Assembly (NCBI GenBank): GCA_042091035.1
Contig: JBELIG010000002.1
Location: forward strand, 8,603-72,602
DNA from: Sphingobacteriales bacterium
Lineage (GTDB): Bacteria > Bacteroidota > Bacteroidia > Chitinophagales > Saprospiraceae
DNA length: 64,000 nt
Direction of reading: 5' to 3'
Notes under the pieces: model-generated
What the model was told of the DNA's origin: nothing
What the model saw: the letters and a program-made list of their open reading frames with translations, nothing else
The model's database searches: none
Shown here: positions 23,907 to 59,995 of the stretch, piece by piece
Position numbering within the stretch: position 1 is the stretch's first letter
How the letters are laid out: each line of letters begins with the position of its first letter
Translations under genes and position numbers: made by a program

Positions 23907-24944
23907 ATGATAAAACAAAAATTAGTGTTCCGAGGGTTCTTGTTCAGTATGATAGTGTTCTCCTTGTACGCTTGTAATAAAGGTCCTAGCAAACCTGATC
24001 TTACAGGTATTACGGTAGGAGTAGAGCTAAGACACTTTGAACAAGATCTATTCAATATAGATACAAACAATACTGCTGCAGAACTAGATCGACTAATGCA
24101 GGATTATCCAGCGTTTTCTGATATCTATTTTGGTCAGCTTTTTCCTGTCTTCGACTCTGTTTTATTCCCAGAAGGTCCAACAGTTATAATCAATGGTTTT
24201 CTATCGGATTCTATGGTTCTTGTTATGTATGAACAGAGCCAAGAATTATACAAAGACTTATCCGGAAATGCATTTGAAGAAGCATTTAAGTATTTCAAGT
24301 ATTATTTTCCAGATAGACAGGTCCCTGATATTACAACATTTGTATCAGAATATACGGTTTCCAATTTCATCTACGCTGAAAATTCACTTGCAGTCGGGCT
24401 CGATTTCTTTTTAGGTGCTGATTACCCCTATTTACTTTTAAATGCTGGTAATCCGAATTTCTCAAATTACTTGAGCCAACATTACAACAAGGACTATATT
24501 GTACGAAATACGCTCTATCCTCTTATTGATGATATGAATGCAGAAAAAGCAGATCGTAAGCTCATCGATTATATGCTTGACAATGGCAAAGAACTTTACA
24601 TTTTAGATGCATTGCTTCCAGAGCTATCGGATACTGTTATCCATCAATATAGCAAGGAAAAAATGGATTGGGTAGCTTCTAATGAGTCTAATATTTATGC
24701 GCATTTGATTGATCAAGAACTTCTATATTCAACCCTTTGGCAGGATTTTAGAAAACTAGTTGACCATAGTCCTAATGCGTCTGGGATGCCCGCAGAGGCT
24801 CCGGGAAGAACAGCCAACTATATTGGATATAGAATGGTAGATGCATACATGAGAAATAACCCAGAAACTACTTTTGAGGATTTGTTAAAACTTAATGACG
24901 CTCAAGAGTTTCTTGCACGATCAAAATACAGACCAAGCCGATAA
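23907..24944 (+). CDS. gldB: GldB-like gliding-motility/T9SS-associated lipoprotein (DUF2268-like)
   Basis: The lipobox is 'LYACNKG'. It then has 'VELRHFEQDLFNID...', 'GLDFFLG' and a C-terminal 'GRTANYIGYRMVDAYM'. Size and pattern match the GldB family from memory. This is not HMM-verified. Confidence 0.5.
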   Translation: MIKQKLVFRGFLFSMIVFSLYACNKGPSKPDLTGITVGVELRHFEQDLFNIDTNNTAAELDRLMQDYPAFSDIYFGQLFPVFDSVLFPEGPTVIINGFLSDSMVLVMYEQSQELYKDLSGNAFEEAFKYFKYYFPDRQVPDITTFVSEYTVSNFIYAENSLAVGLDFFLGADYPYLLLNAGNPNFSNYLSQHYNKDYIVRNTLYPLIDDMNAEKADRKLIDYMLDNGKELYILDALLPELSDTVIHQYSKEKMDWVASNESNIYAHLIDQELLYSTLWQDFRKLVDHSPNASGMPAEAPGRTANYIGYRMVDAYMRNNPETTFEDLLKLNDAQEFLARSKYRPSR

Positions 24945-24984
24945 GAAAAAAGCCAGTTGAACATATTCAACTGGCTTTTTTTTA
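24945..24984. terminator. Bidirectional terminator between the gldB-like gene (+) and the HIT gene (-)
   Basis: The sequence aaaaaAGCCAGTTGAAcataTTCAACTGGCTtttttttt has an 11-bp perfect stem. Confidence 0.85.
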
Positions 24985-25377
24985 TTCAAACCTTTCGGCA
25001 ATTTGTGCTGCTATTATTTGGAAATCTTTGGGTTCAAGTCCATCAATAGGATTTGTAAAATCCATATCACTTAAGGAATTGATGGGTATTAAGTGGATAT
25101 GTGTGTGTGGTACTTCTAGTCCGATAATTGATACTCCTATTCGTTTACAATCAATAACCTGCTTCATTGCTTTTCCTACGCGTTTTGCAAAAAGCATAAG
25201 ACCTGCAAGTGCATCATCTTCCAAATCGAAGACATAGTCAATTTCTCTTTTCGGAATCACCAAAGTATGCCCTTTTTGCAAAGGACGGATATCTAGAAAT
25301 GCGAAATAATCTTCAGACTCTGCAATCTTGTAACAGGGAATTTCACCTGCTATAATCTTTGAAAAGATACCAGCCAT
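24982..25377 (-). CDS. HIT-family (histidine triad) nucleotide hydrolase
   Basis: The sequence 'IFSKIIAGEIPCYKIAESEDYFAFLDIRPLQKGHTLVIPK' and the triad 'HTHIHLIP' support the call. Confidence 0.9.
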   Translation of the reverse strand: MAGIFSKIIAGEIPCYKIAESEDYFAFLDIRPLQKGHTLVIPKREIDYVFDLEDDALAGLMLFAKRVGKAMKQVIDCKRIGVSIIGLEVPHTHIHLIPINSLSDMDFTNPIDGLEPKDFQIIAAQIAERFE

Positions 25378-25859
25378 TAGATTGTGATTTCAAGGATTTC
25401 AAATTTCATCATTCCACCTGGAGTTGTTATTTCCGTAACATCTCCAACCTTCCTTCCTAATAAACCTTCACCAATAGGGGAGCCTATTGAGATCTTTTTC
25501 TCCTTAAGGTTAGCCTCTGACTCTGCAACAAGCTGATAAGTGAATTCTTTTTTCATTTTCAAATTCATAATACGCACTTTAGAAAGTACTCGTACTTCTG
25601 AATTATCCAACTGACTTGTATCAAGTACTCTGGCAGTAGCCATTACAGTTTCTAACTGATTGATCTTTAACTCTAGTAAACCCTGCGCGTCTTTAGCAGC
25701 ATCGTACTCTGCATTTTCAGACAAATCGCCTTTTTCTCTTGCCTCAGCAATTGCTTTAGCAGCTTCAGTCCTACCACGTGTTTTAAGATCGTCCAACTGT
25801 GCCACAAGGTTGTCGTATCCTTCTTGTGACAAATAGGTTACATTAGACATATTCTTCAA
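25377..25859 (-). CDS. greA: Transcription elongation factor GreA
   Basis: The sequence 'GDLSENAEYDAAKDAQG' and the C-terminal 'ISIGSPIGEGLLGRKVGDVTEITTPGG' support the call. The stop overlaps the HIT gene start by 1 nt. Confidence 0.92.
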   Translation of the reverse strand: MKNMSNVTYLSQEGYDNLVAQLDDLKTRGRTEAAKAIAEAREKGDLSENAEYDAAKDAQGLLELKINQLETVMATARVLDTSQLDNSEVRVLSKVRIMNLKMKKEFTYQLVAESEANLKEKKISIGSPIGEGLLGRKVGDVTEITTPGGMMKFEILEITI

Positions 25860-26080
25860 TTTTAAATTAAAAAATTCTAAACCCTAAGTTCTTTGAAACT
25901 TAGCAAGCCAGTCATTCCAATAATGTTTTGGAGAGGAAACAGCCGACAGCAGGATCGCCATCTAGTTTAGAAAAAAATAAGGCTTCCAACATGATTGAAG
26001 GAATCCTTTAAACAAATTTAATTTTTTTCTTTGGTTTTATCAAATTAATCTTATTTCTATTTAATCTATTCTATTAAAAT

Positions 26081-26117
26081 AAAAAAGGCTGACTCTCAAT
26101 GAGTCAGCCTCTTTTAT
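26081..26117 (-). terminator. Rho-independent terminator (minus strand) ending the TBDR/CTD-protein/PorV-like operon
   Basis: The stem is AGGCTGACTC/GAGTCAGCCT (10 bp, 5-nt loop), followed on the minus strand by a U-run. It lies 18 nt past the stop codon. Confidence 0.85.
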
Positions 26118-26134
26118 TATCTGTATCAGCTACT

Positions 26135-27184
26135 CTATAGCTCCAATGTTACACCCACATTGTGTGTACCATTGAACTTACTAGTCATTCGGTAAGCATA
26201 TCCTAAGCCTACACGAGCTGCATCAACACTTTTACCTAACTTAAAGTTAAATGTTGCACCTGCAGAAACACCTGTATAAATCGGCAACTCAGAATCTATC
26301 TGATCCAATTCATATTGGTATCCACCACGAAGTACAAATATATCCTTAAGGTGATACTCAATACCTCCACCAATCTGATCACGGGAGAAGGCATTAGACG
26401 TAAAGTTAGCAAGTACACGAAGTGTATTAACACCGGTGATAACATCATAAGATGTTCCTAACTTAAGAGCCGACTGAAGTTCAACTCTTGAAGAACGCTG
26501 AATTGTTGTCTGCGTAAATGTACCTCCTTCGAATGGAACTGTAGAGATAAAAATAAGTCCCTCTCCTTCGAAAGCTGCTGGAGCTCCAATGTTTCTCAAA
26601 GCAACTCCAAAACGAAAACGATCATTTTCACCGGACTTGTACTGAACACCTGCATCAATTGCAAATGTAGAAAGAGACATATCCTCAACGCGCTCAGAAG
26701 CTACTTTGAAGTTAACTCCTACAAAAATTTTCTCATCCCATGATTTAGCATAGCCAATATTCAAAGAAAAAATTGAAGGAGAAAATGTATTTCCAGTACC
26801 TTCTGGCTGATCCGAAGTCGTTCTTGCAATATCACCCATATCTACATTGTTCAATGAGATACCAAGTGCACCACCATTCTTCAACTTGGTAACCATACCA
26901 AAAGCATTTAATTTGATATCCGTTCCAACTAGGTACTGAGCCTGATGAACGCCTATCTCAAGGTTTGTAACTGAAGCCAAACCTGCAGGATTTACACCAA
27001 ATGATTCCACACCAGTAACAAAAGCAGTGTTCATTGCACTCAAACCAGCTGACTGTGCATATGGAACCAATAGTAATTGGGCAAAACCTGCCTCCCCCTG
27101 ACGATCTGGGTTACCTGCCTGAGCATCAGGCATAAAACCAAGAACCAAAAAGAAGGCTACTATATAGTTTATTATTTTATTCAT
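26135..27184 (-). CDS. PorV/PorQ-family (FadL-like) T9SS-associated outer-membrane barrel
   Basis: The signal peptide is followed by 'GEAGFAQLLLVPYAQSAGLSAMNTAFVTGVESFGVNPAGLA', the hallmark N-terminal segment of PorV/PorQ proteins. The rest has a beta-strand pattern. At 349 aa it is PorQ-sized and shorter than canonical PorV of about 390-400 aa. Confidence 0.7.
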   Translation of the reverse strand: MNKIINYIVAFFLVLGFMPDAQAGNPDRQGEAGFAQLLLVPYAQSAGLSAMNTAFVTGVESFGVNPAGLASVTNLEIGVHQAQYLVGTDIKLNAFGMVTKLKNGGALGISLNNVDMGDIARTTSDQPEGTGNTFSPSIFSLNIGYAKSWDEKIFVGVNFKVASERVEDMSLSTFAIDAGVQYKSGENDRFRFGVALRNIGAPAAFEGEGLIFISTVPFEGGTFTQTTIQRSSRVELQSALKLGTSYDVITGVNTLRVLANFTSNAFSRDQIGGGIEYHLKDIFVLRGGYQYELDQIDSELPIYTGVSAGATFNFKLGKSVDAARVGLGYAYRMTSKFNGTHNVGVTLEL

Positions 27185-27218
27185 AACTTTTTTAATTCAA
27201 AATGTTCAACAAAGTTGG

Positions 27219-27236
27219 GGGGAGCTTGAGCTCCCC
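27219..27236 (-). other. GC-rich intercistronic hairpin between the 1338-aa gene and the PorV/PorQ-like gene
   Basis: The sequence GGGGAGCttgaGCTCCCC has a 7-bp all-strong stem with a tetraloop in an otherwise AT-rich 61-nt spacer. No clean U-run follows on the minus strand. Confidence 0.5.
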
Positions 27237-27245
27237 ACAATTTTA

Positions 27246-30200
27246 TTATAATCCGGTAGCATCAAACTGTCTGTTTGTACCGAACCATTTAATTACACGC
27301 TCACCAAGGCCTTCCGCTTCTACATGGATCAAGTAAACACCACCCGCTACTGGAATATTCTGACTATTCTTCATATCCCATTCAACGTCTGGAGCATATT
27401 GTGCAGACTGAAGTCCTCTGTTCGTTCCTGAAGGCGTAGTATATCTCTCAGCACGGTTAAATCTTTTAATAAATTTACCGTCCAATGAGTATATAGATAC
27501 TACACAAGTTGCAGGAAGATTTGTAATCTTAATTGTATTGTTGAAGTTATTTGAATCGTAATTAGAGAATCCGTAGTAAGGATTAGGAACTACATTGATC
27601 ATATCTAACGCAGACTCAACCTCGTCTGATGTAAGGTCCGTAGACTCTTTACCTGCTATATCGAATTGGTAAGTTGGATTACCGTTACGAACTCCAGTTC
27701 CAGTCTCTACAGCGTAAGGACTTGTAACTCGTAACTTAACAGTTACGTCATTTGGTATAAGACCAGACTCTCCAGATCCAAGAGGATCTAAACGAGCTCC
27801 AGATTTAAGAATCGGGAATCCAGCCCACACTACATTTCTAATGTATGTCAAATAGAAAGTGTAAGCACTATTCGGAGTCAAGTTCTTAGCAGCATCATAA
27901 AGTGCGTTACAGCCATCATATTCTGTATTAGTAACATAAATAAAGTGCTGCCCACCACAATAAAGATTTGCTTGCCCAAATTGAACACCCTGAAGTTCAA
28001 GTAATGTCTCATCCGATGGATTAAACATCATATCATTTGTATTTGTTCTTGAATCTTCATTTGCAAAATAAGGCTCAATAATCGGATCGCTGAATGAAGA
28101 GTTCTCTCCGAAGAAGATGTTTACACGTTTTCCTGTTTCAACATTAATCGCATAACCTGGGAACCATCCCTTACCAGTTGCTGCATCAGAAGTATCAGAA
28201 TCCGCTTTTCCATCTCCATCACTATCATACTTACCAACAGATGTTGAAGCTCGAAGCATCATCTGTGCATGGTTATCAATAGATGGGAAGTTTGATGTCA
28301 TTCCAGGGTTTGCTGTTTCTACAACGATACATCTTGACCACATACTCTTATCAGAGGTGAAAACAATATCAATATTGTTTAGGTTACCCATGATTTGAGG
28401 AAGGTTAAAGTTGTTGTTGAAGAAAGTACTTGCACCTACTTTAGTCCAACCTGGAGTCAAAACAGGTCCAGCAGCTGGATTTGTAGGATCAGTAGTATAA
28501 TCATTAGTTGCTAGAGGGAATGGCACGAAACCATCCGCCATAGAACCAAGCGTATTATTTGGATCAATATTAAACACGTTAGATCCTTCTTCAGGATTTA
28601 CGTAATCAAACGTACTTGAAATAAAGGAAGCCTGAATTCCAAAATCTTCTTCATCTTTAACTACATCAAACCAATCTGCACCAGTAACATCAGAATAAAC
28701 AACTTCTGAACCAACTGCTCCGTCAGGGCTTGCTGAATTGAATAGATCCTCATCATTCTTTATAGCAATAGAGAATCCATATTGACCAAATACTTGTTCG
28801 TTTAGTAACTCAATTGAAGTTTCTGAAGCAATGATTTCACCAGTTCCAAGGTCTTCAAGTTCCCAAACTGCATCCTCATCTAATGAGTCATCATTTTGAT
28901 CTGAATCCTTAAACCTAAGCTCATAAGATCCATTTGTTACCTCTAGTGGATTGAAAATCTTCACAGCGATTGGACCGCCACCTTCTTTGTACGTAATCGA
29001 ACCATCGAATTCACCATTTAGAATCTGATCTCTTGACTCATCAGAGATATCAAGGAAGTTAGATCCAACACCGACACCATCCAAACGTGTAACGATAGCA
29101 CCATCACCGTAATTTGAATTAAGCGTCTGATCAACAATTGGTCTTGGAATTGCAGTAAATGGAGAACCACCTCTACGACCAATGATAAATGGACGACGTT
29201 GGCCTTCACCAAGATCTTCATTAAATTCTTCGTAGTTATTATATCCGTATGCTACAACTTTGTAGTAATACCTCGTATGATTGATCAAACGTGTATCATT
29301 ACCCGATTTAAATGCATCGTTAGTTACTTTAAATGTATGCTCAATACCTTTATTAGATCCTTCTACTTGTACAGTAGGGAACCAAACTTCATCCGTAGTT
29401 CCATCTGGATATTCAATAGCTTCACTACTCCAATTGTAAATTGTAGAGATTCCATTCTTAACATCCATCTGCAAAATCAAACGAGCTTTTTCAGGATCCT
29501 GAAGATCAGCTACATCATTTGGACTTGGAATTTGGTATACTAGGTATCCTTCAAACCTATATGCTGGATCAATACCAGGAATAACAGGAGCTGTTGGATC
29601 ATCCTCAGTATATGCCTCAAATGCATTGTTTGAAGTCAATTTGTCATTTGTAAGTATCATCACCAACTCTCTGTCAAGTTCCACAAGATCTACATCCGGT
29701 GCATCTGGACCATCAAGAATATCGAAACAACTATCAAAAAGTCCTTGAGCAAAATCATCCGCTTTAAAGAACCTGTTAAGATCTGGACAAGGGTAAGTCA
29801 TGTCTGGTACCCAAACTACACCAACAATTAGTTCGTTAACAGCACCCGGAAGAAGTCTAAAAGGACCTGAAGCCTGAAGCTGACGTCTATCGTAATCAGA
29901 AGGAAGTGTTTCTGTACACATTGACCAACCTTCACCATTGTTTGGTTCATCAAAAAATACATAATCTACCTCTTCACCTCCAGTTTGGTATCCATCACCA
30001 CCAAACTGAATTGGGGTTCCGTCTCTCCATGAACCAGAAAGGTAGTTATAGTATTCAAAATCCTGAGATGGATCTGTAGTACCTACAGGAGGATCACCAA
30101 CTCCACCGTTGTTGTAAACAGCGAATGAAGACATTCCTAATTCTTCCTCACCGATAATATTATCTTCGGCATCAAAAATAGGCTTTAAAGGTCCTCTGAA

Positions 30201-31262
30201 ATAGTCAATCCCAATCATCGGAACCTCATTACCGTAAGTTGGTACACCTTGCAGACATGTAATACCATTAGTACCATCTTCTTCATCTGCATTATAAGCA
30301 TACCCAAGAGAACGAACTGTATCACAGCCAATATAATCATCCGTATAACAACCTAGATCTATATCTGCCCACATTGCAAAGTAGGTAGAATCAATCTCAT
30401 CAATTGCACGGTTAATTAAACGATAAGCTTGGAAAGTCATGTCATTTACCTGGTCATTTGTACCATAAGCAAAAGACTGAACTTGAATTTCCATCTGAAT
30501 AGCATCACCTTGAGATTCTGAGTGAATACCACCGTTATCGTTATAAATCCAGTAGATCATCTGATCTGGATATTGAGGCTCTTCACAACCTCTTACACGG
30601 ATTACAGGATAGTCTCCGTTCAGAGGTTCATATGAACCATCCGCATCTGCATCATAAAAGTATGCAAGTCCCTGCTCATTGTCAGGAAGCGCAAAACCAT
30701 AGTATGAAGCGAAGTACTGATTACCTTTTGCAGGCCAGTATTTTACACCGAAAGGAATTTGATCTTGCTCATAAGTGCCACCATTTACAGCTTCTGCAAG
30801 AAGAGCAATATGATCATCTATCTCTGAAGCATATACCTCAAAGAATCTATCCCAATCTTCACATCTTTCCTTCTCAGTAGTACCATCTGCATCGTTCAAT
30901 GGACCATTATAAAAATCCGTATTACCTTGAGAAGATCCATAAGTCTGAGCGGCAAGCTTAAGATTACCACCTGAATCAAATCCTCCTAGCCATACACCAC
31001 CTGCAAATACCGAAGATACTTCGATCTCACCTGCAGCAACAGCTGGTACTACGTATTTTCCATCACCAGAGCCATCCCACCAGTTATCACCACCGGTTCT
31101 TAGACGAGCTCTTACATTATTAACTTTACCCTGAGTCAGACGATTAACCCCCTGATCTATCTGGGCTTTAGGCTTCAGACATTCTTCTTGAGCCTGCATT
31201 CCAACAAGGAACGAGAACATCAAAAGTGCTGATAACCAATATTTATGTTTCATCATTTTCAA
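27246..31262 (-). CDS. 1338-aa secreted protein of unknown function with a T9SS C-terminal sorting domain
   Basis: The signal peptide is 'LLMFSFLVGMQAQ'. I recognise no catalytic motif. The C-terminal 90 aa or so, 'MINVVPNPYYGFSN...TIKITNLPATCVVSIYSLDGKFIKRF...GGVYLIHVEAEGLGERVIKWF', is CTD-like. Confidence 0.8.
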   Translation of the reverse strand: MKMMKHKYWLSALLMFSFLVGMQAQEECLKPKAQIDQGVNRLTQGKVNNVRARLRTGGDNWWDGSGDGKYVVPAVAAGEIEVSSVFAGGVWLGGFDSGGNLKLAAQTYGSSQGNTDFYNGPLNDADGTTEKERCEDWDRFFEVYASEIDDHIALLAEAVNGGTYEQDQIPFGVKYWPAKGNQYFASYYGFALPDNEQGLAYFYDADADGSYEPLNGDYPVIRVRGCEEPQYPDQMIYWIYNDNGGIHSESQGDAIQMEIQVQSFAYGTNDQVNDMTFQAYRLINRAIDEIDSTYFAMWADIDLGCYTDDYIGCDTVRSLGYAYNADEEDGTNGITCLQGVPTYGNEVPMIGIDYFRGPLKPIFDAEDNIIGEEELGMSSFAVYNNGGVGDPPVGTTDPSQDFEYYNYLSGSWRDGTPIQFGGDGYQTGGEEVDYVFFDEPNNGEGWSMCTETLPSDYDRRQLQASGPFRLLPGAVNELIVGVVWVPDMTYPCPDLNRFFKADDFAQGLFDSCFDILDGPDAPDVDLVELDRELVMILTNDKLTSNNAFEAYTEDDPTAPVIPGIDPAYRFEGYLVYQIPSPNDVADLQDPEKARLILQMDVKNGISTIYNWSSEAIEYPDGTTDEVWFPTVQVEGSNKGIEHTFKVTNDAFKSGNDTRLINHTRYYYKVVAYGYNNYEEFNEDLGEGQRRPFIIGRRGGSPFTAIPRPIVDQTLNSNYGDGAIVTRLDGVGVGSNFLDISDESRDQILNGEFDGSITYKEGGGPIAVKIFNPLEVTNGSYELRFKDSDQNDDSLDEDAVWELEDLGTGEIIASETSIELLNEQVFGQYGFSIAIKNDEDLFNSASPDGAVGSEVVYSDVTGADWFDVVKDEEDFGIQASFISSTFDYVNPEEGSNVFNIDPNNTLGSMADGFVPFPLATNDYTTDPTNPAAGPVLTPGWTKVGASTFFNNNFNLPQIMGNLNNIDIVFTSDKSMWSRCIVVETANPGMTSNFPSIDNHAQMMLRASTSVGKYDSDGDGKADSDTSDAATGKGWFPGYAINVETGKRVNIFFGENSSFSDPIIEPYFANEDSRTNTNDMMFNPSDETLLELQGVQFGQANLYCGGQHFIYVTNTEYDGCNALYDAAKNLTPNSAYTFYLTYIRNVVWAGFPILKSGARLDPLGSGESGLIPNDVTVKLRVTSPYAVETGTGVRNGNPTYQFDIAGKESTDLTSDEVESALDMINVVPNPYYGFSNYDSNNFNNTIKITNLPATCVVSIYSLDGKFIKRFNRAERYTTPSGTNRGLQSAQYAPDVEWDMKNSQNIPVAGGVYLIHVEAEGLGERVIKWFGTNRQFDATGL

Positions 31263-31275
31263 TTTATTTTGTCAA

Positions 31276-34200
31276 TTAGAATGAGAAAACTGTTCCTAAA
31301 TAGAATCTTCTCGGCTGTGTAAAGAAGTCAGGATTCAACATACGCCAATTGTATGCAGAAATATAACTTGTTTCAGATAGTGTTGGATCATTTCCAATTG
31401 CAGTCAATGCAGACTGACCATTAGCAGATGCCAAATAACCATCATCATCCGCCACACCTGTAGCCGTAAAGACATTTAGTACATTTCTTCTGTTCAAGAT
31501 ATTTGATACCCTTAGGTAAACCTGGAAGTTCAGGCTTGAACCATTTTCCCTAGCAATAGAGAAATTCTTCATCAATCTTGAATCCAATTGGAATGTCCAA
31601 GGTTTTCTTGCACCATTAATAGATCCAAGTGTAAAGTCTCCACCAAATTGAGTTGGCTGAAGTTTCTTCGTATAAGGACGACCTGATACTGCATTCATCT
31701 GAACATTCAGACCTGCATTAGCAAAGATGTCTCTTCCGAATAATACTGGACCATTATATTTCTTTCCTTCTCCGTAAGAGTAGTCTAGATTCAAACCGAA
31801 TCTGTGACGCTCATCAAAGTTAAGTGGATATAGTGAACGCTGAACTCCTCTAAAGTCTAGACCACGAGTCGAGTTAGCATCTGAACCAGTACCATCAGCA
31901 AACTGAAGGGTATATGATAACTGCATTTGAATATTCTTCGTACGACGAAGGTCATAATAGAATGTAAAACCTTTGGTAGTACCAAAGTCAAGGTTATCAT
32001 AGGTTGTATATTGGCCAAGGATAGCAACCTGAGTCAATTGTCTTGACTGGATCATATCTCTTAGCTCCTTGTAGTAAGCTGAAAGTTTGATTGATGAACG
32101 ATCATTAAGTTTCTGTTGGAAACCAATTTCGTAATCAATCGTACGCTCTGGCCTAAGATTTGGATTGTTCTTTAGTGTTCCTCCTTCGTAGAATAGGTAA
32201 TAATCCAATGGAGTAAATACGCTATTTGAAGCTGGACGCTGAACCATCACATCATAGTGTGCATAGAAGTTTGCAACATCTGAAATCGCAAATGAAAATG
32301 CAAGACGAGGTGAGAAATTCACCTGTGGTACATAGTCAACAAATGAAGTCGATGGATCGAATTCAGGAGAGTTGATCGATACGTCAGGATTAACATACAT
32401 TGGCTGTACAGTCTGACCACCGAAAATTTGAGGTCCTGTGCTCTCTGTACCACCTGATGTATACCAAGCATCACCATTTCTATATGCTACAACTTGTGGT
32501 TGCTCTATATTGGTTACATATACCTTAGAATCATCACCTACAGTAGATGGAGCTTCACCTCCAAATTGTGCATGATAATCAGCAGCAGAATAAACATCTT
32601 CTAAGACATACAGATCTTTAGCCACCTTCGTGTTTGCATCGAAACGATCCATACGAAGACCAAAACTAAAGTAGATATCGTCGATATTAAATTTATCTTC
32701 TACATAGAAAGCAAAGTAGTTCGGTGTAAATGCAGGAACATCAAATGTTCTCAGACCATTCTCATCTGTATTTGTGAAGAAGTCATCAAAAGTTGAGTTC
32801 TTCTTCTCACCTGTATAAGAATAACCATAATAATTCAAGATATTCTCAGTAGTAAGCTCTGAGGAAGAGAACATGTCTAATGACAATTGATCTGGACTAA
32901 ATCCATGTACATTTACGAAATCACTTAATGGAATTCCGAATGACTCACGAATCTCTCTATAAAATGAGTTACCCAATAAATCAACTGTTGCTTTACCGTA
33001 AATAGGGATAAGCTCACCCGTTTGTTCAACGAGAGAATCTCCAACGATCATTGATGTATCTACACCTATGATGTTACGATTTACTTGTTGTTCAGCAATA
33101 CGCCAAAGAGCGGTAGGATCTAAATCCCATCTTCTTGAAGTACGTTGCTCATACATAGCACCAAATTTGATGTTATGTCTGTTTGCAGAATTTTTTCTTG
33201 GAACAATCTCGAAAGATACATTCGCTTGAGCAGTTATACGATCACTCTCTGTTTTAGTGTAATTATTGTAAACAGCACCTGCATTGGTATGAAGACCATT
33301 GAAGATTTCTGTAAGTGTATTACTCTGGAAACCATTTCTGATCAAATATGCAGACTCGATAGATCCTTCTGGAATGTCTGCGTTATAATTTTCCAATACT
33401 GGATTAATTCCAGCTGGTGCATACCCTGTAAGCGTCTGAGAGAAACCTCTATGCTCTAGGAAGAATGGATAGTCCGCTGGATTTTCTCTATCAAATGGAA
33501 GACCTAGCGCATTATCAAAACTATAGTCAAAACGTCCAACATATCCGTAATCAAAGAATCTGTCTTCATGTCTTGAGTCATAAGTATATCTGTTAGAACG
33601 CTCAAAACCACCCTGAAGGATGTAAGTAATATTTTGAACAGCACTTTTTGTCTCTCCCTCTCCTGCAGATGTATAATCAGTCTTTCCAAGACGGTGTCTC
33701 AACCTAAAGTTTGCACGGTAATTTTGGAAATCAGAATAAGGGTTGTTGTGCGAGTTAAAAAGAATCCAACGACTATTACCATTATCATTTGATCCTGGTA
33801 GGAATCTTTCTTTGTTCTTTCTGAATGAACCTGACGCAGTAACGTCAATACCCTTTGAAACCTGCCAATCCAATTTTGCAGTGTAGAACATATCCTCTAT
33901 TTCTGAATTAGGATTGTAATCCAATGCTTCGACTTCTTGGTCAGTCATTGTATTAGCAGTAGGACGAAGAATTCCTCCAATATTATCAACTGGATTTGCC
34001 TCAATCTCAGCAATTTTTGCGTCCGTTGCTTTGTAATAAACTCCCTGAGGAGGATTATTATCATCTTCATATCTATATTGACCCGAAATACGGAAACCAA
34101 GTATAGATTTATCATTCTTTTTGATAATTGGACCAGCTATACTTGCAGCAGCAAGGTTATAGTTATAATTATCAAAAGGAGAAGTTGTCTCTAAATCCAC

Positions 34201-34890
34201 ACTACCAGAATAATTACTCTGAGGTCCTTTTGTGATGATCGAGATGATACCACCTGTTACATCACCGTACTGAGCGGAAATACCACCAGTCAATACCTGA
34301 ATCTGCTCATACTCCGATTGCGGAGGTAATGAACCACTCACGCGAATACCATCCACGTAATAATCGGTTGCATTAGAACGAGATCCCTTTACGTTGACAT
34401 CACCATCAACAGATGCAACACCCGCTACAGTAGATACAATACTTCCAATGGATTTACCAGGAAGATTTGCAATCTCTTCAGCTGTTACCGTCTTACCTCC
34501 AGTTGTATTATCAACTTCGATTAGTGGCACTTTGTAGCCCACCACAACGAATTCGTCCATTATTTCTGAATCCGGGACAAGGGTTACATCAAGTTTAACA
34601 ATTCTGTTTACATAAAGAACTACTCCCGTTGTTCTTGATGATGCAAAACCTACATAGGAAACCTCCACATCGTAAGTTCCGGGATCAAGATTGGGAATAG
34701 AATAATTCCCGTCAAAATCAGTCACGCCCCCAGTAATCTGGACACCGCCTCTTTTGACTAATACCGTAGCGCCGATAGCGCCTAACCCTGATTCATTCTC
34801 TGTCACCTTTCCCTGAAGGGTACCCTGGGCAGAAGCTCCAAAGGATCCTAGGAGAAGAAAAGACAGGGTTATGAGTAAATAACGTACCAT
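31276..34890 (-). CDS. Giant (1204 aa) TonB-dependent-receptor-like outer-membrane protein with an N-terminal carboxypeptidase-regulatory-like domain (Oar-like architecture)
   Basis: It has a signal peptide. The CarboxypepD_reg-like region reads 'GTLQGKVTE...GATVLV...TDFDGNYSIPNLDPGTYDVEVSYVGF'. The plug reads 'VVVGYKVPLIE...TAEEIANLPGKSIGSIVSTVAGV...VKGSRSNATDYYVDGIRV...ISAQYGDVTGGIISIITK'. A long barrel ends 'YLGTVFSF'. There is no SusD-like neighbour. Confidence 0.8.
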   Translation of the reverse strand: MVRYLLITLSFLLLGSFGASAQGTLQGKVTENESGLGAIGATVLVKRGGVQITGGVTDFDGNYSIPNLDPGTYDVEVSYVGFASSRTTGVVLYVNRIVKLDVTLVPDSEIMDEFVVVGYKVPLIEVDNTTGGKTVTAEEIANLPGKSIGSIVSTVAGVASVDGDVNVKGSRSNATDYYVDGIRVSGSLPPQSEYEQIQVLTGGISAQYGDVTGGIISIITKGPQSNYSGSVDLETTSPFDNYNYNLAAASIAGPIIKKNDKSILGFRISGQYRYEDDNNPPQGVYYKATDAKIAEIEANPVDNIGGILRPTANTMTDQEVEALDYNPNSEIEDMFYTAKLDWQVSKGIDVTASGSFRKNKERFLPGSNDNGNSRWILFNSHNNPYSDFQNYRANFRLRHRLGKTDYTSAGEGETKSAVQNITYILQGGFERSNRYTYDSRHEDRFFDYGYVGRFDYSFDNALGLPFDRENPADYPFFLEHRGFSQTLTGYAPAGINPVLENYNADIPEGSIESAYLIRNGFQSNTLTEIFNGLHTNAGAVYNNYTKTESDRITAQANVSFEIVPRKNSANRHNIKFGAMYEQRTSRRWDLDPTALWRIAEQQVNRNIIGVDTSMIVGDSLVEQTGELIPIYGKATVDLLGNSFYREIRESFGIPLSDFVNVHGFSPDQLSLDMFSSSELTTENILNYYGYSYTGEKKNSTFDDFFTNTDENGLRTFDVPAFTPNYFAFYVEDKFNIDDIYFSFGLRMDRFDANTKVAKDLYVLEDVYSAADYHAQFGGEAPSTVGDDSKVYVTNIEQPQVVAYRNGDAWYTSGGTESTGPQIFGGQTVQPMYVNPDVSINSPEFDPSTSFVDYVPQVNFSPRLAFSFAISDVANFYAHYDVMVQRPASNSVFTPLDYYLFYEGGTLKNNPNLRPERTIDYEIGFQQKLNDRSSIKLSAYYKELRDMIQSRQLTQVAILGQYTTYDNLDFGTTKGFTFYYDLRRTKNIQMQLSYTLQFADGTGSDANSTRGLDFRGVQRSLYPLNFDERHRFGLNLDYSYGEGKKYNGPVLFGRDIFANAGLNVQMNAVSGRPYTKKLQPTQFGGDFTLGSINGARKPWTFQLDSRLMKNFSIARENGSSLNFQVYLRVSNILNRRNVLNVFTATGVADDDGYLASANGQSALTAIGNDPTLSETSYISAYNWRMLNPDFFTQPRRFYLGTVFSF

Positions 34891-35306
34891 ACAGTCTTTT
34901 TTAATTAGTTACAATAATCTAATTCGAGTTTTTTTATTCACACAATATTAACCAAATGCCTCCGCTTTACAAAGAATATTAAGGTCTTGGAAGAAAGTTA
35001 TGCTCAAAAAAATCTTTCGGATATAATGTCTTTTTTGATATATTATCTCGACAATACTCCTATAAACCAATTGCAAAATAGGTCTTAAGGGTTAAAATAA
35101 TAAACTTAATCCATCTAAAATCAAGGCTTCTAAATAAACTAAAAACAACACATACAGCTATTTAACAATGATTTAAGCAAAAAAATACACACAAAACCGG
35201 ATAGATTTTATTGAAGATTAATTAATAGGATGCACAAATACCTTATCCATTTATTACCTTGCTACTCAAATTTATCACGTGCCGTGACACTAACAAATAG
35301 AATCCA

Positions 35307-35990
35307 ATGAGGTCATCTTTTTACATTTCAATTGCAATTTCATTATTATCCTTAGGTTTTCTCTTGTCTTGTAATGAGGAGGATACAGATACTCAAGAGG
35401 TCCTTAGTGGAAATTTCTATGTTAGATACCTTGAAAAAGGAAGTGTCGAACGAATAGAGGCGCACCTTTTTCTTGTGGATACCTCCAAAAACAAAACTCC
35501 TTTTGTATTGTCCGACGGTATTAAACAAGGAAAAGATAAAATGAACAGCAAATGGATCTCCGACAAACTACACAGATACCAAATTGAACAGGAAAGGTCA
35601 TTTAGAAATTTTGTAGAATTTGAATTCAAAGACCTTAGTGGTACAAGTTTAAAGAATACTATTAAGATGTCTGGCATAAAAAGCTACACGCTTGATGAGC
35701 AAGTCAGCCTCAAAGATGGTTTTGAGCTGGATTTTTCTAAAGAACAACTACAAAGCAATGAAAAAATAAATATTCTTTTTAACAATGAAAAAGGAGAGAC
35801 TAAAGTCATTAGTATAATCGGCCCACAAGATTCACTCTTACAAGTTGATCTTGTAAAACAAGGTTTGTCTGAAGGAAAATGGACGTACTATTTTGTAAAA
35901 AGAAGTGAATCAATTCAAGAAGGACCGAATATTTTATTGCATAATGCCTACGAATTCTACAGCACTGATAAACAAACTATTATAAATTAA
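35307..35990 (+). CDS. Hypothetical 227-aa lipoprotein
   Basis: The lipobox is 'GFLLSCNEE'. The gene is divergent from the TBDR-like operon and has no recognisable motif. Confidence 0.55.
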   Translation: MRSSFYISIAISLLSLGFLLSCNEEDTDTQEVLSGNFYVRYLEKGSVERIEAHLFLVDTSKNKTPFVLSDGIKQGKDKMNSKWISDKLHRYQIEQERSFRNFVEFEFKDLSGTSLKNTIKMSGIKSYTLDEQVSLKDGFELDFSKEQLQSNEKINILFNNEKGETKVISIIGPQDSLLQVDLVKQGLSEGKWTYYFVKRSESIQEGPNILLHNAYEFYSTDKQTIIN

Positions 35991-40099: not shown

Positions 40100-40333
40100 T
40101 TACGAATTACCTGATTTCTTTTTCTCTGAGATCTTTGAGCCTTTATTCATTCCCTCAAATCCTTTTTTACCTGATAGTTGAGAATTCTTTATTGGATCAG
40201 TATCATTCAATGCTGGATCCGGTAGTTCTTCTGTATAGCCCGCATCCATCTCAAGTGCATTGCGACTTGAGCCACAGGAAATCAAGCTTACAACTATAAA
40301 AAAACTAAGTACCCTGAATAATGATTTTTTCAT
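40100..40333 (-). CDS. 77-aa lipoprotein, hypothetical
   Basis: The lipobox is 'VSLISCGSS' and the C-terminus is Lys-rich. The start lies 29 nt inside the 3' end of the upstream 805-aa gene. Confidence 0.5.
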   Translation of the reverse strand: MKKSLFRVLSFFIVVSLISCGSSRNALEMDAGYTEELPDPALNDTDPIKNSQLSGKKGFEGMNKGSKISEKKKSGNS

Positions 40334-42722
40334 TCGATAGTATTTTTCCTGAATATTCTTTGATCACAAGATAATAAACTCCCTTCGATAATACATCAGT
40401 ATTGAAAGTAAGTCTTTGGACACCAGGCTTAAGAAATCCAGAAAAAAAATTCCGAACTAATTTACCTGATGCATCCACTAGCATAATAGTAAGCCCCAAA
40501 CGCTCCCTCAGTTGCATGTCAGCACTAAAAGAATGTACAGCTGGATTCGGATAGACCGACAAGCTTGCCAAGTCTGAGACTTTATTCAAACTGCTAAGCG
40601 TGCTAACCGTGATAAAGTCCTCTTTGAAAACCTGTGACTCTCCAAAAGCATTTGACACAGACAATTCGACTGAGTATATACCCGGTTCTTTAAATACAAC
40701 GACGGGGTTCTGGATGTTGTGGTATTGCTCATCAGCACCTTCAATAATCCATTCCCAATAGTCAACCTCTGAAAGACTCACACCTTGAAAAATAACATTT
40801 TCATCTACGGTAACACTTGAGCTTGTTACCTGAATATCGGCTTCTGGCAAAACACCGACTTGTACAAAATCATATTTTGTAACCTGCTGAGTTCCAAAAG
40901 CATTTGACACAGACAATGTAACATCATAATTCCCCGGGCTTAAATACTCTACGACTGGATTGGGGTCAGTAGAAAACGATGGATTACCATTGGGAAATGA
41001 CCAATATCTATTTTCAACAGCAGATGAGGGTTCATCCGAAAAACTAACCGACAAGGGACCTACACCAAATGTATTACTTGCAATAAAATCCGACAAAGGA
41101 GCATTGCCATTATTACCTATACTCACCTCCCCAATAAAATTTCCAAACTTCATATTTTTACCATAGCATCCAAAAACCCAAACCGTAGGGTCGTCAGTTT
41201 CAAATTGCATTACAGTAGAGGTATAATCACCCCACCGTTGATTCAAATTATTGGATATTGATATTGGTGATTCACCACTTTTTATAAGGATTGAATTGGT
41301 GGAATTCATGTACTTATCAATCTTAAATGCTCTAATTTCTGGATACAGAGATTGACCAGAACGAAGACAGGATATCAAGACTGAAAATTGATTGTTTTCT
41401 GTTTCAAAGGCTGAGATAGATGGATAAGCATAATCAAAACCTAGCAGTCCATAATCAATTGAGTAACTTTCATAATCATTGAGATCGAATTTAGTATATC
41501 GAATTCCTGCATAGCCATTTCCAAAATCAGTGGCATGTACAAAATGTAGTTTCTCGTCGGCATAAAACCCATCCCTAAGTCGAACTCCACCAGTAAATAA
41601 TTTCTTATCCGATCCATTCTGAGAAGCCTCTACTGGAGCAGCATAACTCATTGTAGGTATAGAAAACACTTCCAATACTTGCTCGGCAGAAAGTTGGTCC
41701 GTAATCCTATACAACAAGAATGAGTTTCCTCCAGCGGGATTTGTACTTATCAAATATAAACCTGAACTATAATTTTCCGCTACCCCCGAAGACATTGGCT
41801 TTATGGTAAAAGATCCAACTCCCATGCCATCTGAAATATTTTCAAATATCTCCCAAGAAGCTTCTTCACCAGCATAAAGTGCAGTCTTATCCAACTGAAT
41901 TACTACAGATTGTGTAAACTGAGCACTACTCGTGAACATGTTTCCACTTATAAAAATATCCTCTGCAGAGACCCCAACGTTAGGATAGTCAAACCAAGCA
42001 TCCGCCTCTATATCTGATGCGAGGATTGTGGTTGTGTTCCAACCGTCCAATGGATTGCCAGACGCTGATACAGAAACAACAACCCTGTTTGATTGTGGTG
42101 AATTAGAATATAGACATACAATAATAAATCTGTCCGCCTCAACGTCATAGATAATCCTAGGGTCAAAGAAGAAATATCCTAAATCAAGAAAACTATAAAA
42201 TTGCCCTAAGGACTGACTATTCAAAAACACTACACCACCAGAATTGTAAAAACTAATGGAAGAATTTGTAAGACTAACAATATAGCCATCATTAGAAATT
42301 GCCATCGCATTATCCGAAGGATACCAACTATTATATGCGTTGCCTTCAAACCCATTGACAAGGGCTATACCCCCATCAGCATCGGATTCTACAAGATTGA
42401 ATGGGTCGAATTTAGTATTAAGTTTACTAGACCTAAGCTTATCGATCTCAGCATCAAGTTCAAGCTTATCTTGAATACTTGCTTGGCCTTGTTCTATGGC
42501 TACAAGGCTCAAGTCAAAATCCTTGCTCGAACTTAAGTCTATATCATGGAATATTGGAAAAAGTGGATTAGACTTACTAACAGGCTGAATGCTATTAATC
42601 TTATGTTCCTTATGAAGTGTTTCTTCCGATTTAATTTCCACAAGGTCTTCCTGTGCAGATACGGTAAAAATCGGAAACATTATGAGTGCAAAAAGCAGCA
42701 AAAAGCAGGTGTAGTTTTTCAT
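40305..42722 (-). CDS. 805-aa secreted protein: unknown N-terminal region, two PKD-like domains and a T9SS type-A C-terminal sorting domain
   Basis: It has a signal peptide. The PKD-like repeats read 'GPLSVSFSDEPSS...YWSFPNGNPSFSTDPNPVVEYLSPGNYDVTLSVSNAFG' and '...VVVFKEPGIYSVELSVSNAFG'. The CTD reads 'LSVYPNPAVHSF...GVYYLVIKEYSGKILSNEKIIIQ'. Confidence 0.8.
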   Translation of the reverse strand: MKNYTCFLLLFALIMFPIFTVSAQEDLVEIKSEETLHKEHKINSIQPVSKSNPLFPIFHDIDLSSSKDFDLSLVAIEQGQASIQDKLELDAEIDKLRSSKLNTKFDPFNLVESDADGGIALVNGFEGNAYNSWYPSDNAMAISNDGYIVSLTNSSISFYNSGGVVFLNSQSLGQFYSFLDLGYFFFDPRIIYDVEADRFIIVCLYSNSPQSNRVVVSVSASGNPLDGWNTTTILASDIEADAWFDYPNVGVSAEDIFISGNMFTSSAQFTQSVVIQLDKTALYAGEEASWEIFENISDGMGVGSFTIKPMSSGVAENYSSGLYLISTNPAGGNSFLLYRITDQLSAEQVLEVFSIPTMSYAAPVEASQNGSDKKLFTGGVRLRDGFYADEKLHFVHATDFGNGYAGIRYTKFDLNDYESYSIDYGLLGFDYAYPSISAFETENNQFSVLISCLRSGQSLYPEIRAFKIDKYMNSTNSILIKSGESPISISNNLNQRWGDYTSTVMQFETDDPTVWVFGCYGKNMKFGNFIGEVSIGNNGNAPLSDFIASNTFGVGPLSVSFSDEPSSAVENRYWSFPNGNPSFSTDPNPVVEYLSPGNYDVTLSVSNAFGTQQVTKYDFVQVGVLPEADIQVTSSSVTVDENVIFQGVSLSEVDYWEWIIEGADEQYHNIQNPVVVFKEPGIYSVELSVSNAFGESQVFKEDFITVSTLSSLNKVSDLASLSVYPNPAVHSFSADMQLRERLGLTIMLVDASGKLVRNFFSGFLKPGVQRLTFNTDVLSKGVYYLVIKEYSGKILSNEKIIIQGT

Positions 42723-58852: not shown

Positions 58853-59995
58853 TTAAGCATAAACTGTAGTTCGAATTATTTCCGCATAATAATCTTCATA
58901 CTGAGGAAGAATATAGTCAATCGAAAATCGCTCAGCCTGCGTTAAGGCAGCCTTTCGAAATTTGGTTAACTCTTCCTCAGACTTCAAGATAGATAGGGCA
59001 TTTTTCGCCATTGCTTCTATATCTCCAACTGAAGAAATATAACCTGTAACACCATCAATATTAACCTCAGGGATACCGCCTACATTCGAAGAAATAACAG
59101 GTACCTGACATGCCATTGCTTCAAGTGCTGCTAGACCAAAACTTTCATTTTCGGAAGGCATAACAAATATATCTGAAATCGCTAATAGCTCCTCTACAGC
59201 TTCTTGCTTACCAAGAAAACGAATCTTATCACAAAGACCCATTTCGCGACATAATGCTTCCATTTTATATCGGTCAGGACCATCACCAATCATGAGTAAA
59301 GTTGCTGAAATCTCTTTCTCTACAAGCGCAAACATTTTAATCACATCATCCACCCGTTTTACTTTTCGGAAGTTGGACACATGAATAAATATTCGTTCTC
59401 CATTTGGCGCTATTGCCTGTTTGAAATGTTCTTTATTCTGCCTTGAGAATCTGTTTAAATCTATAAAATTATGAATAACTTTGATATCATTAGAAATATC
59501 AAAAGCCTCCAAGGTTTGTTTTTTAAGAGCATGAGACACTGCTGTTACACCATCAGACTTGTCAATTGAAAAACTAACTACAGGGGCCATTGCTGGATCT
59601 CGCCCGACCAAGGTAATATCTGTACCATGCAAGGTTGTAACTACTGGTATATACTTTCCTTTTTGAAGAAGAATCTTTTTTGCCATATAGGCCACAGAGG
59701 CGTGTGGTACAGCGTAATGAACGTGCAGTACATCCAAGTCTTCATGAAGAACTACATCCACCATTTTACTCGCTAAAGCAGTCTCATAAGGTGCATATTC
59801 AAAGAGTGGATAATTAAGGTCACTAACCTCATGATAGAATACATTTTCTTGAAATGCAGTTAATCTAAAAGGTGTTCTATATGTAATGAAATGAACTTCA
59901 TGTCCTTTCTTCGCAAGTCCAAGGCCTAATTCAGTAGCTAACACTCCTGATCCTCCAAAGGTTGGATAACAAACTATTCCAATCTTCATACCCAT
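58853..59995 (-). CDS. bshA: N-acetyl-alpha-D-glucosaminyl L-malate synthase (bacillithiol biosynthesis glycosyltransferase)
   Basis: The sequence 'KIGIVCYPTFGGSGVLATELGLGLAKKGHEVHFI' and the GT4 C-terminal 'PSENESFGLAALEAMACQVPVISSNVGGIPEV' support the call. Confidence 0.8.
   Translation of the reverse strand: MGMKIGIVCYPTFGGSGVLATELGLGLAKKGHEVHFITYRTPFRLTAFQENVFYHEVSDLNYPLFEYAPYETALASKMVDVVLHEDLDVLHVHYAVPHASVAYMAKKILLQKGKYIPVVTTLHGTDITLVGRDPAMAPVVSFSIDKSDGVTAVSHALKKQTLEAFDISNDIKVIHNFIDLNRFSRQNKEHFKQAIAPNGERIFIHVSNFRKVKRVDDVIKMFALVEKEISATLLMIGDGPDRYKMEALCREMGLCDKIRFLGKQEAVEELLAISDIFVMPSENESFGLAALEAMACQVPVISSNVGGIPEVNIDGVTGYISSVGDIEAMAKNALSILKSEEELTKFRKAALTQAERFSIDYILPQYEDYYAEIIRTTVYA

Follow-up and report, generated by a model that had tools for sequence, protein, structure and literature searches.

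A conserved Bacteroidota operon predicted to encode a TonB-dependent transporter, a large orphan surface protein and a PorV/PorQ-family barrel

A stretch of 64,000 nt from a Saprospiraceae genome (Sphingobacteriales bacterium, assembly GCA_042091035.1, contig JBELIG010000002.1, positions 8,603 to 72,602) was analyzed around three consecutive genes of its minus strand. The whole stretch is referred to below as the window, and coordinates are counted from its first letter. The three genes, here called gene 1, gene 2 and gene 3, are predicted to encode a TonB-dependent transporter, a large secreted protein with a type 9 secretion system (T9SS) C-terminal domain (CTD), and an outer-membrane barrel of the PorV/PorQ family. 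The features of the locus are the following:

31276-34890, minus strand: gene 1, an open reading frame (ORF) of 1204 aa, from the ORF list
27246-31262, minus strand: gene 2, an ORF of 1338 aa opening with TTG, from the ORF list
27246-31256, minus strand: gene 2 read from an ATG start, 1336 aa, with a Sec signal peptide, member of an unannotated family
29673-31190, minus strand: N-terminal module of gene 2 (aa 25-530), a large beta-supersandwich with a helical insert in an AlphaFold2 model
27249-27605, minus strand: predicted CTD of gene 2 (aa 1220-1338), with a T9SS type-A-like fold according to sequence and Foldseek matches
26135-27184, minus strand: gene 3, an ORF of 349 aa, outer-membrane barrel assigned to the PorV/PorQ family
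34891-35105, minus strand: conserved upstream region of about 215 nt, from an alignment of the window with the related loci L001, L004 and L005
34943-34973, minus strand: predicted promoter of the Bacteroidota type, from reading of the sequence and recurrence of the motif in relatives
27219-27236, minus strand: stem-loop GGGGAGC-UCAA-GCUCCCC in the gap that separates genes 2 and 3, with no U-run after it
26076-26110, minus strand: intrinsic terminator at the end of the operon, made of a GC-rich stem of 10 bp with a T-run after it

The three genes form one operon, with short gaps between them, one conserved promoter and one terminator. The layout described in the initial annotation of this DNA, namely three same-strand genes separated by 13 nt (gene 1/gene 2) and 61 nt (gene 2/gene 3), 416 nt of non-coding DNA upstream of gene 1 (34891-35306) and a closing terminator, was confirmed in the sequence. 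The length of 1338 aa given there for gene 2 was correct for the ORF, but the ATG at 31256 is the probable start of translation, because an identical database protein (P0001) has 1336 aa; the first gap would then be 19 nt. The terminator reads AGGCTGACTC-ATTGA-GAGTCAGCCT on the minus strand, with the stem running from 26110 to 26086, and is followed by TTTTTTATTTT.

The predicted promoter consists of a -33 element TTTG (34973-34970), a 19-nt spacer and a -7 element TAATATTG (34950-34943), and its position predicts a 5' untranslated region of about 45-50 nt ahead of gene 1. The motif TTTG-N17-22-TAnn[A/T]TTG was found in 31 of 71 related loci, compared with 1.45 expected from shuffled sequences, and in all but one of these 31 its start lay 58-113 nt upstream from the ATG of gene 1. 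The approximately 215 nt directly upstream of gene 1 were nearly identical in relatives with 77-85% protein identity, and the sequence diverged farther upstream. A riboswitch or structured leader was rejected for this region, since no match was obtained in Rfam and the fold energy was no better than that of shuffled sequences (z = +0.74). The region probably corresponds to a set of regulatory DNA sites, bound by regulators upstream of the promoter, and not to a structured RNA. Five relatives retained the stem-loop located between gene 2 and gene 3, in which two base pairs had changed in a compensatory way. Its role may be to fix the proportion of gene 3 relative to genes 1 and 2, or to stabilize the upstream transcript. 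On the other side of the non-coding DNA lies a divergent ORF of 227 aa (35307-35990, plus strand), which gave no Pfam or NCBIfam match and whose position was kept in L001, a locus with 77% identity.

The product of gene 1 carries a signal peptide, a CarboxypepD_reg domain (aa 24-116; 53.9 bits, cutoff 32.3), a plug (aa 133-214; 34.3 bits, cutoff 23.9) and a long barrel, and ends in ...VFSF, that is, with a terminal phenylalanine. The barrel matched TonB-dependent receptor models weakly (for instance aa 858-999 at E=1.7e-10), and orthologues of gene 1 bear PF00593. A TonB-box-like strand, DEFVVVGYKVPLIE, precedes the plug; its residues Y119, P122, L123 and I124 were invariant across 12 orthologues, and we take it to resemble the TonB-box region of Bacteroidota. 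From the plug, the barrel matches and the terminal aromatic residue, gene 1 is classified by sequence as a plugged TonB-dependent transporter. The CarboxypepD_reg domain, the plug, the terminal phenylalanine and the lack of a SusD partner stated in the initial annotation were confirmed: the neighboring gene 2 product gave no SusD-family match and has no lipobox. The SusC signature (TIGR04056, TIGR04057) was not found in gene 1 in Pfam and NCBIfam scans.

The description of gene 1 as "Oar-like" was not supported. An Oar-specific family was absent from the Pfam and NCBIfam matches at E<=0.1, and the matches of a profile of 12 orthologues to solved transporters in the PDB were limited to the plug and the N-terminal domain, with no structure matching the barrel. 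SusC-type transporters have the order of CarboxypepD_reg domain, plug and large barrel just as well, and therefore the resemblance to Oar is not established. At the level of sequence, "Oar-like" describes a generic layout only, and nothing appears to tie gene 1 specifically to either Oar or SusC.

A Sec signal peptide is present in the product of gene 2, which lacks a lipobox and is not a lipoprotein. The full-length protein gave no Pfam match and no meaningful NCBIfam match, and no sequence relative was found in the PDB, either with the single sequence or with a profile. An exhaustive HMMER search collected 6660 cluster representatives of this family at E<=1e-3, of which 1743 reached E<=1e-30. 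Close homologues numbered more than 1600; in the best 120, identity over the full length was 49% or higher, and no functional name was attached to any of these 120. When 18 diverse members were scanned against Pfam, the only matches found in several members were of the CTD type, and two single-member matches near E 0.06 were at noise level. Two calcium-type loops with the motif DxDxDG (aa 202-207 and 1013-1018) and about 11 cysteines were conserved among the Saprospiraceae-type orthologues.

Two AlphaFold2 models of gene 2, each built on a 64-sequence alignment, were compared with the PDB by Foldseek. The model of the N-terminal half (aa 25-790) reached a predicted local distance difference test (pLDDT) score of 76.5, and that of the C-terminal half (aa 700-1338) a score of 84.7 overall, with lower values (~60-87) across the CTD blocks. 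The N-terminal half gave weak matches to GH116, GH94, OpgD and PL17 (E ~1e-4, template modeling (TM) score ~0.17, ~320 columns), in which the aligned part is, as we understand these families, a non-catalytic beta-supersandwich domain. The assignment of an enzyme identity from these weak matches was therefore considered unjustified. The conserved alpha/beta region at aa 956-1205, which contains the motifs WSRC, FPGYAxDVETGxRxNxFFGENS, DMxFNP and GGQHxIYV, had no structural match when the C-terminal-half model was searched with Foldseek; R1046, E1053 and D1116 are among its invariant residues. In three distant relatives (P0263, P0203 and P0249), an N-terminal module of about 750 aa was found fused to other C-terminal halves; these included BNR/sortilin-type repeats and Big_9/cadherin-like domains, and some of the proteins have FlgD_ig-type tails. 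The occurrence of the N-terminal module on such varied C-terminal halves indicates, as far as sequence comparison goes, that it is a mobile, family-defining unit.

The significant PDB matches of the C-terminal half were confined to the CTD. This domain matched that of PorZ (5m11) at E=4.8e-6, and matched the substrate CTDs seen in the SprA-PorV translocon with a probability of 1.0 and a TM score of 0.66 (8gl8_D) and with a TM score of 0.69 (8glk_D). In sequence, the last 129 residues scanned alone matched the PorZ CTD (E=4e-5) and the PorU tail (E=2e-3). The type A models were matched with partial coverage and below their cutoffs (TIGR04183, 19.7 bits, cutoff 23; PF18962, 14.2 bits, cutoff 27). 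Homologues of gene 2 in other genomes pass the type A model and several are named "T9SS type A sorting domain-containing protein" by NCBI; in the set of 18 diverse members, Por_Secre_tail was matched in four and FlgD_ig in six. Two features of the domain, a loop inserted internally and the conserved tail KWFGxNRQFDxxGL, have no counterpart in ordinary CTDs. According to the model, the C-terminal domain of gene 2 has the fold of a T9SS CTD and is nearest to that of PorZ. Of the features initially assigned to gene 2, the signal peptide stood, and the T9SS CTD stood as a fold but not at the sequence cutoffs for type A.

Several genes elsewhere in the window belong to the T9SS or to its cargo:

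56525-58849, plus strand: canonical T9SS PorZ, 774 aa (NF052228, 452.5 bits, cutoff 260)
23907-24944, plus strand: GldB, a T9SS gene
40305-42722, minus strand: ordinary T9SS type-A cargo protein
60102-62714, minus strand: ordinary T9SS type-A cargo protein

One of the two cargo proteins has PKD domains and a Por_Secre_tail match of 30.3 bits, and the other, of 870 aa, a TIGR04183 match of 43.6 bits. The porZ gene has no adjacent PorQ-type barrel; NadD is encoded upstream of it, and the gene just downstream (58853-59995), which has the opposite orientation, encodes BshA.

Gene 2 is neither PorU nor PorZ. This conclusion follows from the equivalog scores, from the model folds and from the presence of the separate canonical PorZ in the window. 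The PorU model (NF033707) gave 15.6 bits against a cutoff of 420, confined to the C-terminal tail, with no Peptidase_C25 match, and the PorZ model (NF052228) gave 16-22 bits against a cutoff of 260, confined to the CTD. In Foldseek, the similarity to PorU (6za2) was weak and non-significant (E ~8e-3, root-mean-square deviation 21.7 Å, TM 0.07-0.11). The body of PorZ consists of two beta-propellers; neither a PorZ body, nor a propeller structure, nor a C25 peptidase fold was matched outside the CTD when the gene 2 models were searched. The initial annotation had named a match to the PorU/C25 sortase as one of the results that would overturn its proposal, and no such match was obtained.

The product of gene 3 scored 131.8 bits with the PorV/PorQ family model (NF033709, cutoff 90), aa 34-348 aligning with model positions 4-325 of 326, and 29.9 with the Pfam PorV model (cutoff 27), which bore out its initial placement in this family. 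The equivalog models were failed by a wide margin: PorV (NF033710) gave 59.9 against 250, PorQ (NF033711) 74.5 against 220 and PorV2 (NF052325) 42.3 against 325, all of them covering the N-terminal half only. Some orthologues gave weak matches to the PorP_SprF Pfam model. When a profile of the family was compared with the PDB, the only solved relative was PorV of F. johnsoniae (6h3i_F, E=1.5e-15). On these profile scores, gene 3 is assigned to the PorV/PorQ family as a distinct paralogue that is not PorV, PorQ or PorV2. Divergence of the lineage is an unlikely cause of the failures; those of both gene 2 and gene 3 are meaningful because the PorZ equivalog model recognizes PorZ in the same window.

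The order gene 1-gene 2-gene 3 was kept in 80 Saprospiraceae-type loci wherever the contig reaches far enough, and the six incomplete loci among them were all cut by contig ends. The loci nearest to the window belong to Saprospiraceae, Lewinella and metagenome-assembled genomes labeled "Sphingobacteriales". More distant members, retrieved with profiles of progressively more remote relatives, were found in Crocinitomicaceae, in Aureispira, in metagenome-assembled genomes of Bacteroidales, Chitinophagales and Sphingobacteriales, and in the cultured Cytophagales Catalinimonas alkaloidigena and Adhaeribacter sp. BT258. Every named match of the gene 2 family was a member of Bacteroidota, and some of the distant relatives have FlgD_ig-type tails.

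Downstream of the trio, and as a separate transcription unit, lies a conserved pair of neighbors identified by Pfam:

24982-25859, minus strand: greA and a HIT-family gene

The order greA-HIT after the trio was also observed in L001 and L082-L087, and in L002, where additional copies of gene 2 intervene. Surroundings were examined for eight distant loci, and in seven of these the same block was present, at gene 2 identities as low as 25-35%: a transporter of 1209-1303 aa with CarboxypepD_reg domain and plug, the gene 2 homologue, a barrel of 348-382 aa, greA and HIT. In addition, ruvC follows in four loci and a serA-like dehydrogenase gene precedes in three. The trio with greA and HIT was thus seen in Crocinitomicaceae, Bacteroidales, Cytophagales (Catalinimonas and Adhaeribacter) and two further Bacteroidota assemblies. 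This distribution indicates that the block is old and has apparently been inherited vertically across several orders of Bacteroidota. The three genes are therefore co-conserved, as the initial proposal required, in every locus with enough flanking DNA, and their spread is wider than had been assumed: several orders, and not an oddity of one lineage.

Only gene 2 was found duplicated. One or two extra tandem copies follow the barrel gene in eight of the 80 Saprospiraceae-type loci, and also in L083, and the transporter and the barrel remain single in these cases. The tandem copies, for example those of L002 (15298-23311), L047, L060 and L083, were 45-50% identical to one another and their CTDs were conserved. 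By analogy, this pattern resembles that of multiple binding proteins serving one transporter.

The CTD was also the part of gene 2 under the strongest constraint. In an alignment of 19 orthologues, column conservation was highest in the CTD (0.79, with 34.5% of the columns invariant), compared with 0.75 in the N-terminal module and 0.53 at aa 781-955. Among 68 trios, the mean pairwise distance was smallest for the CTD (0.328), followed by the N-terminal part (0.37), gene 3 (0.416), gene 1 (0.446) and the middle of gene 2 (0.537). Furthermore, the CTD was more conserved than the body in every gene 2 paralogue. Such constraint would be expected of a permanent, specific docking interface rather than of a transient export signal. 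The main argument for retention of the CTD on gene 3, an indirect one, is that it is the slowest-evolving region of the protein, together with the analogy of PorZ on PorQ and PorU on PorV. The initial suggestion of a PorV/PorQ paralogue dedicated to one CTD protein fits these data, the CTD being nearest to those of PorZ and PorU and the most conserved part, and a separate PorZ being present in the window.

Taken together, these results led us to put forward, tentatively and at slightly less than an even chance, that gene 2 is exported by the T9SS, is held on gene 3 by its retained CTD, and captures or processes a substrate that is imported through gene 1. The products of the three genes would form one outer-membrane assembly. 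Gene 2 would cross the inner membrane by the Sec pathway, and once folded it would be exported by the T9SS with the CTD as the signal; this route is proposed because of the CTD fold and because PorZ, GldB and type-A cargo genes are present in the window. The CTD would then stay uncleaved and attached to the loops that the dedicated gene 3 barrel exposes outside the cell, in the manner of PorZ on PorQ and PorU on PorV. As a result, a beta-rich, calcium-binding protein of 150 kDa would be displayed at the surface, where it could bind or process a substrate from outside, perhaps a glycan or some other polymer. The product would be handed over to the co-expressed, TonB-energized gene 1 for import, with both the contact between the two proteins and the direction of transport being postulated here. 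Functionally, this would parallel a SusC/SusD-like pair for capture and uptake, with a surface partner anchored by a barrel instead of a lipid. It has been suggested before that specific CTDs are protected and held by cognate PorV-like barrels (PMC10202324), and complexes of surface proteins with TonB-dependent transporters are common in Bacteroidota (10.1101/2025.01.31.636011).

Several observations weigh against this uptake proposal. Loci for nutrient uptake usually vary, move horizontally and are controlled by sensors encoded nearby. The block, on the contrary, has been inherited vertically across orders beside housekeeping genes (greA, HIT, ruvC and the serA-like gene), and no gene for a sigma/anti-sigma pair or a hybrid sensor was identified by family matches among the neighbors scanned. 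A vertical housekeeping neighborhood suits a housekeeping function in the envelope at least as well. Moreover, no catalytic or binding domain was recognized in gene 2, for which the supersandwich match is weak (TM ~0.17). A mirror-tree analysis with a partial Mantel test did not set co-evolution of the CTD with gene 3 apart from that of other pairs: their partial correlation (0.32) was not above that of other parts, and all parts co-varied with phylogeny. Finally, L081 (9001-22185) contains four tandem copies of gene 2 with no adjacent transporter or barrel.

A related proposal, which we regard as rather unlikely, keeps the docking and changes the purpose. The trio would be an ancient, so far undescribed machine of Bacteroidota in which gene 2, delivered by the T9SS and permanently docked through its uncleaved CTD on a private barrel, acts as the extracellular lid or receptor of the transporter, a counterpart of SusCD that does without a lipoprotein and has a housekeeping role. 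One candidate role for the trio is the T9SS-dependent assimilation of scarce divalent cations, with which the DxDxDG loops are compatible but which they do not demonstrate. Such assimilation has been described in Cytophaga hutchinsonii, where the surface binding proteins were left unidentified (PMC11611037).

A housekeeping role could also take another form, the chief alternative to the uptake proposal, to which we assign a similarly low probability: a complex for envelope or cell-surface biogenesis, or an accessory of the T9SS, with gene 1 as a structural or gating barrel and gene 2-gene 3 as a third attachment-type pair beside PorU-PorV and PorZ-PorQ. This explanation accommodates the vertical inheritance beside greA, HIT and ruvC, the slow evolution (~50% identity over 1300 aa across a family) and the resemblance of the gene 2 CTD to the retained CTDs of PorZ and PorU. 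There are precedents for its parts as well: a TonB-receptor-like barrel, PG0534/PorF, is needed for the T9SS in P. gingivalis (PMC5445135, PMC11611037), and in BamG-BamH a FadL-type barrel holds a large surface protein in a biogenesis machine (PMC12578637). Nevertheless, the classical T9SS model genera were absent from the named matches and from the eight distant loci examined, and the family has no NCBI or Pfam name, while a core part of the T9SS would probably already have been found by genetics. The tandem duplication of gene 2 alone would also be unusual for a stoichiometric part of a machine, and the plug and TonB-box-like strand of gene 1 are typical of active transport.

Export of gene 2 through gene 1 itself, with gene 3 receiving it at the surface independently of the T9SS translocon, was judged very improbable. 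It would explain why the genes are adjacent and co-inherited, and it has a model in Myxococcus xanthus Oar, a TonB-dependent transporter needed for the export of PopC, whose layout of CarboxypepD_reg domain, plug and barrel is the same as that of gene 1. However, gene 2 has the CTD fold of a T9SS substrate in a window that contains PorZ, GldB and ordinary CTD cargo, and a multidomain, cysteine-rich protein of ~1336 aa is an unlikely passenger for a plugged barrel of 22 strands. In addition, the similarity of gene 1 to other transporters is restricted to the plug and the N-terminal domain, with nothing specific to Oar, and extra gene 2 copies occur without extra transporters. Lastly, a divergent housekeeping porU-porV or porZ-porQ pair, which is mimicked by the placement of a PorV-family barrel after a large CTD protein and by the CTD matches to PorZ and PorU tails, can be dismissed almost entirely, given the tail-only equivalog scores of gene 2, its models with neither a C25 fold nor a PorZ-type body, the 60-75 bits of gene 3 against PorV/PorQ cutoffs of 220-250, and a canonical PorZ in the window that shows that the equivalog models work in this lineage.

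The uptake assembly proposed above was then compared with known systems. With PorZ-PorQ and PorU-PorV of P. gingivalis it would have in common a 14-strand barrel of the PorV/PorQ family and a large surface protein with a type-A-like CTD, whose retention is extended to the trio by analogy. It differs from them in that the body of gene 2 is unrelated, gene 3 fails the three equivalogs and a TonB-dependent transporter is co-transcribed. The PorP/SprF type, represented by SprF-SprB in Flavobacterium johnsoniae, likewise has an adjacent, dedicated PorV-like barrel for one large T9SS substrate (PMC10202324). In contrast to that type, the CTD of gene 2 is type-A-like (TIGR04183/PF18962, FlgD_ig), with no type-B model match reported, and the barrel of the trio is encoded after the cargo and scores above the PorV/PorQ cutoff, with the transporter within the same unit.

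As in SusC/SusD systems, a TonB-dependent transporter with a CarboxypepD_reg domain is co-expressed with a surface partner, here a predicted one, and this partner alone is duplicated in some genomes, as are surface glycan-binding proteins. The trio has, however, neither a SusD/RagB homologue nor a SusC/RagA signature; its partner is a T9SS-type CTD protein with its own barrel and not a lipoprotein, and it lies in a vertically conserved position beside housekeeping genes and not in a variable polysaccharide-utilization locus (PUL). The link to Oar is by architecture and analogy only, through the order of its domains. Oar and PorF are alike in being TonB-receptor-type barrels tied to secretion rather than to classical uptake; PorF, of ~92 kDa (PMC5445135) compared with ~133 kDa for gene 1, is also linked by analogy only. 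The cellulose locus chu_1276-1280 of Cytophaga hutchinsonii was considered as an equivalent and rejected, since in the description available for comparison it is of the PUL type and has an SGBP-B-like cellulose-binding protein, unlike the trio.

No description of this combination of three genes, of its wide fixed synteny or of the orphan family of 1300 residues was found in the literature. Dedicated PorV-like barrels for particular CTD proteins and complexes of transporters with surface partners are already known; what appears to be new is that both are combined in one operon, with wide fixed synteny and an orphan family. If the uptake proposal is correct, the use of a private PorV-like barrel and an uncleaved CTD would extend beyond the T9SS attachment complex to a working surface protein, and the T9SS would be tied physically and directly to TonB-dependent transport. 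A role would also be provided for a large orphan family of at least 6660 clusters at 50% identity, whose body has no Pfam domain and whose entries have no functional name. The trio may bear as well on the growth and ion-assimilation defects of T9SS mutants in some Cytophagia. Cultured Cytophagales (Adhaeribacter and Catalinimonas), and not only the mostly uncultured Saprospiraceae, keep the block beside greA; the hypothesis is therefore directly testable by genetics and by structural work on native membranes.

One further observation concerns the origin of L081. The title of its record (CP058647.1) is "Hyphobacterium sp. CCMP332", presumably referring to an alphaproteobacterial genus, although the record contains four members of a family that was found elsewhere in Bacteroidota only. 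The record may be mislabeled, or the sequence may come from a co-cultured bacterium.

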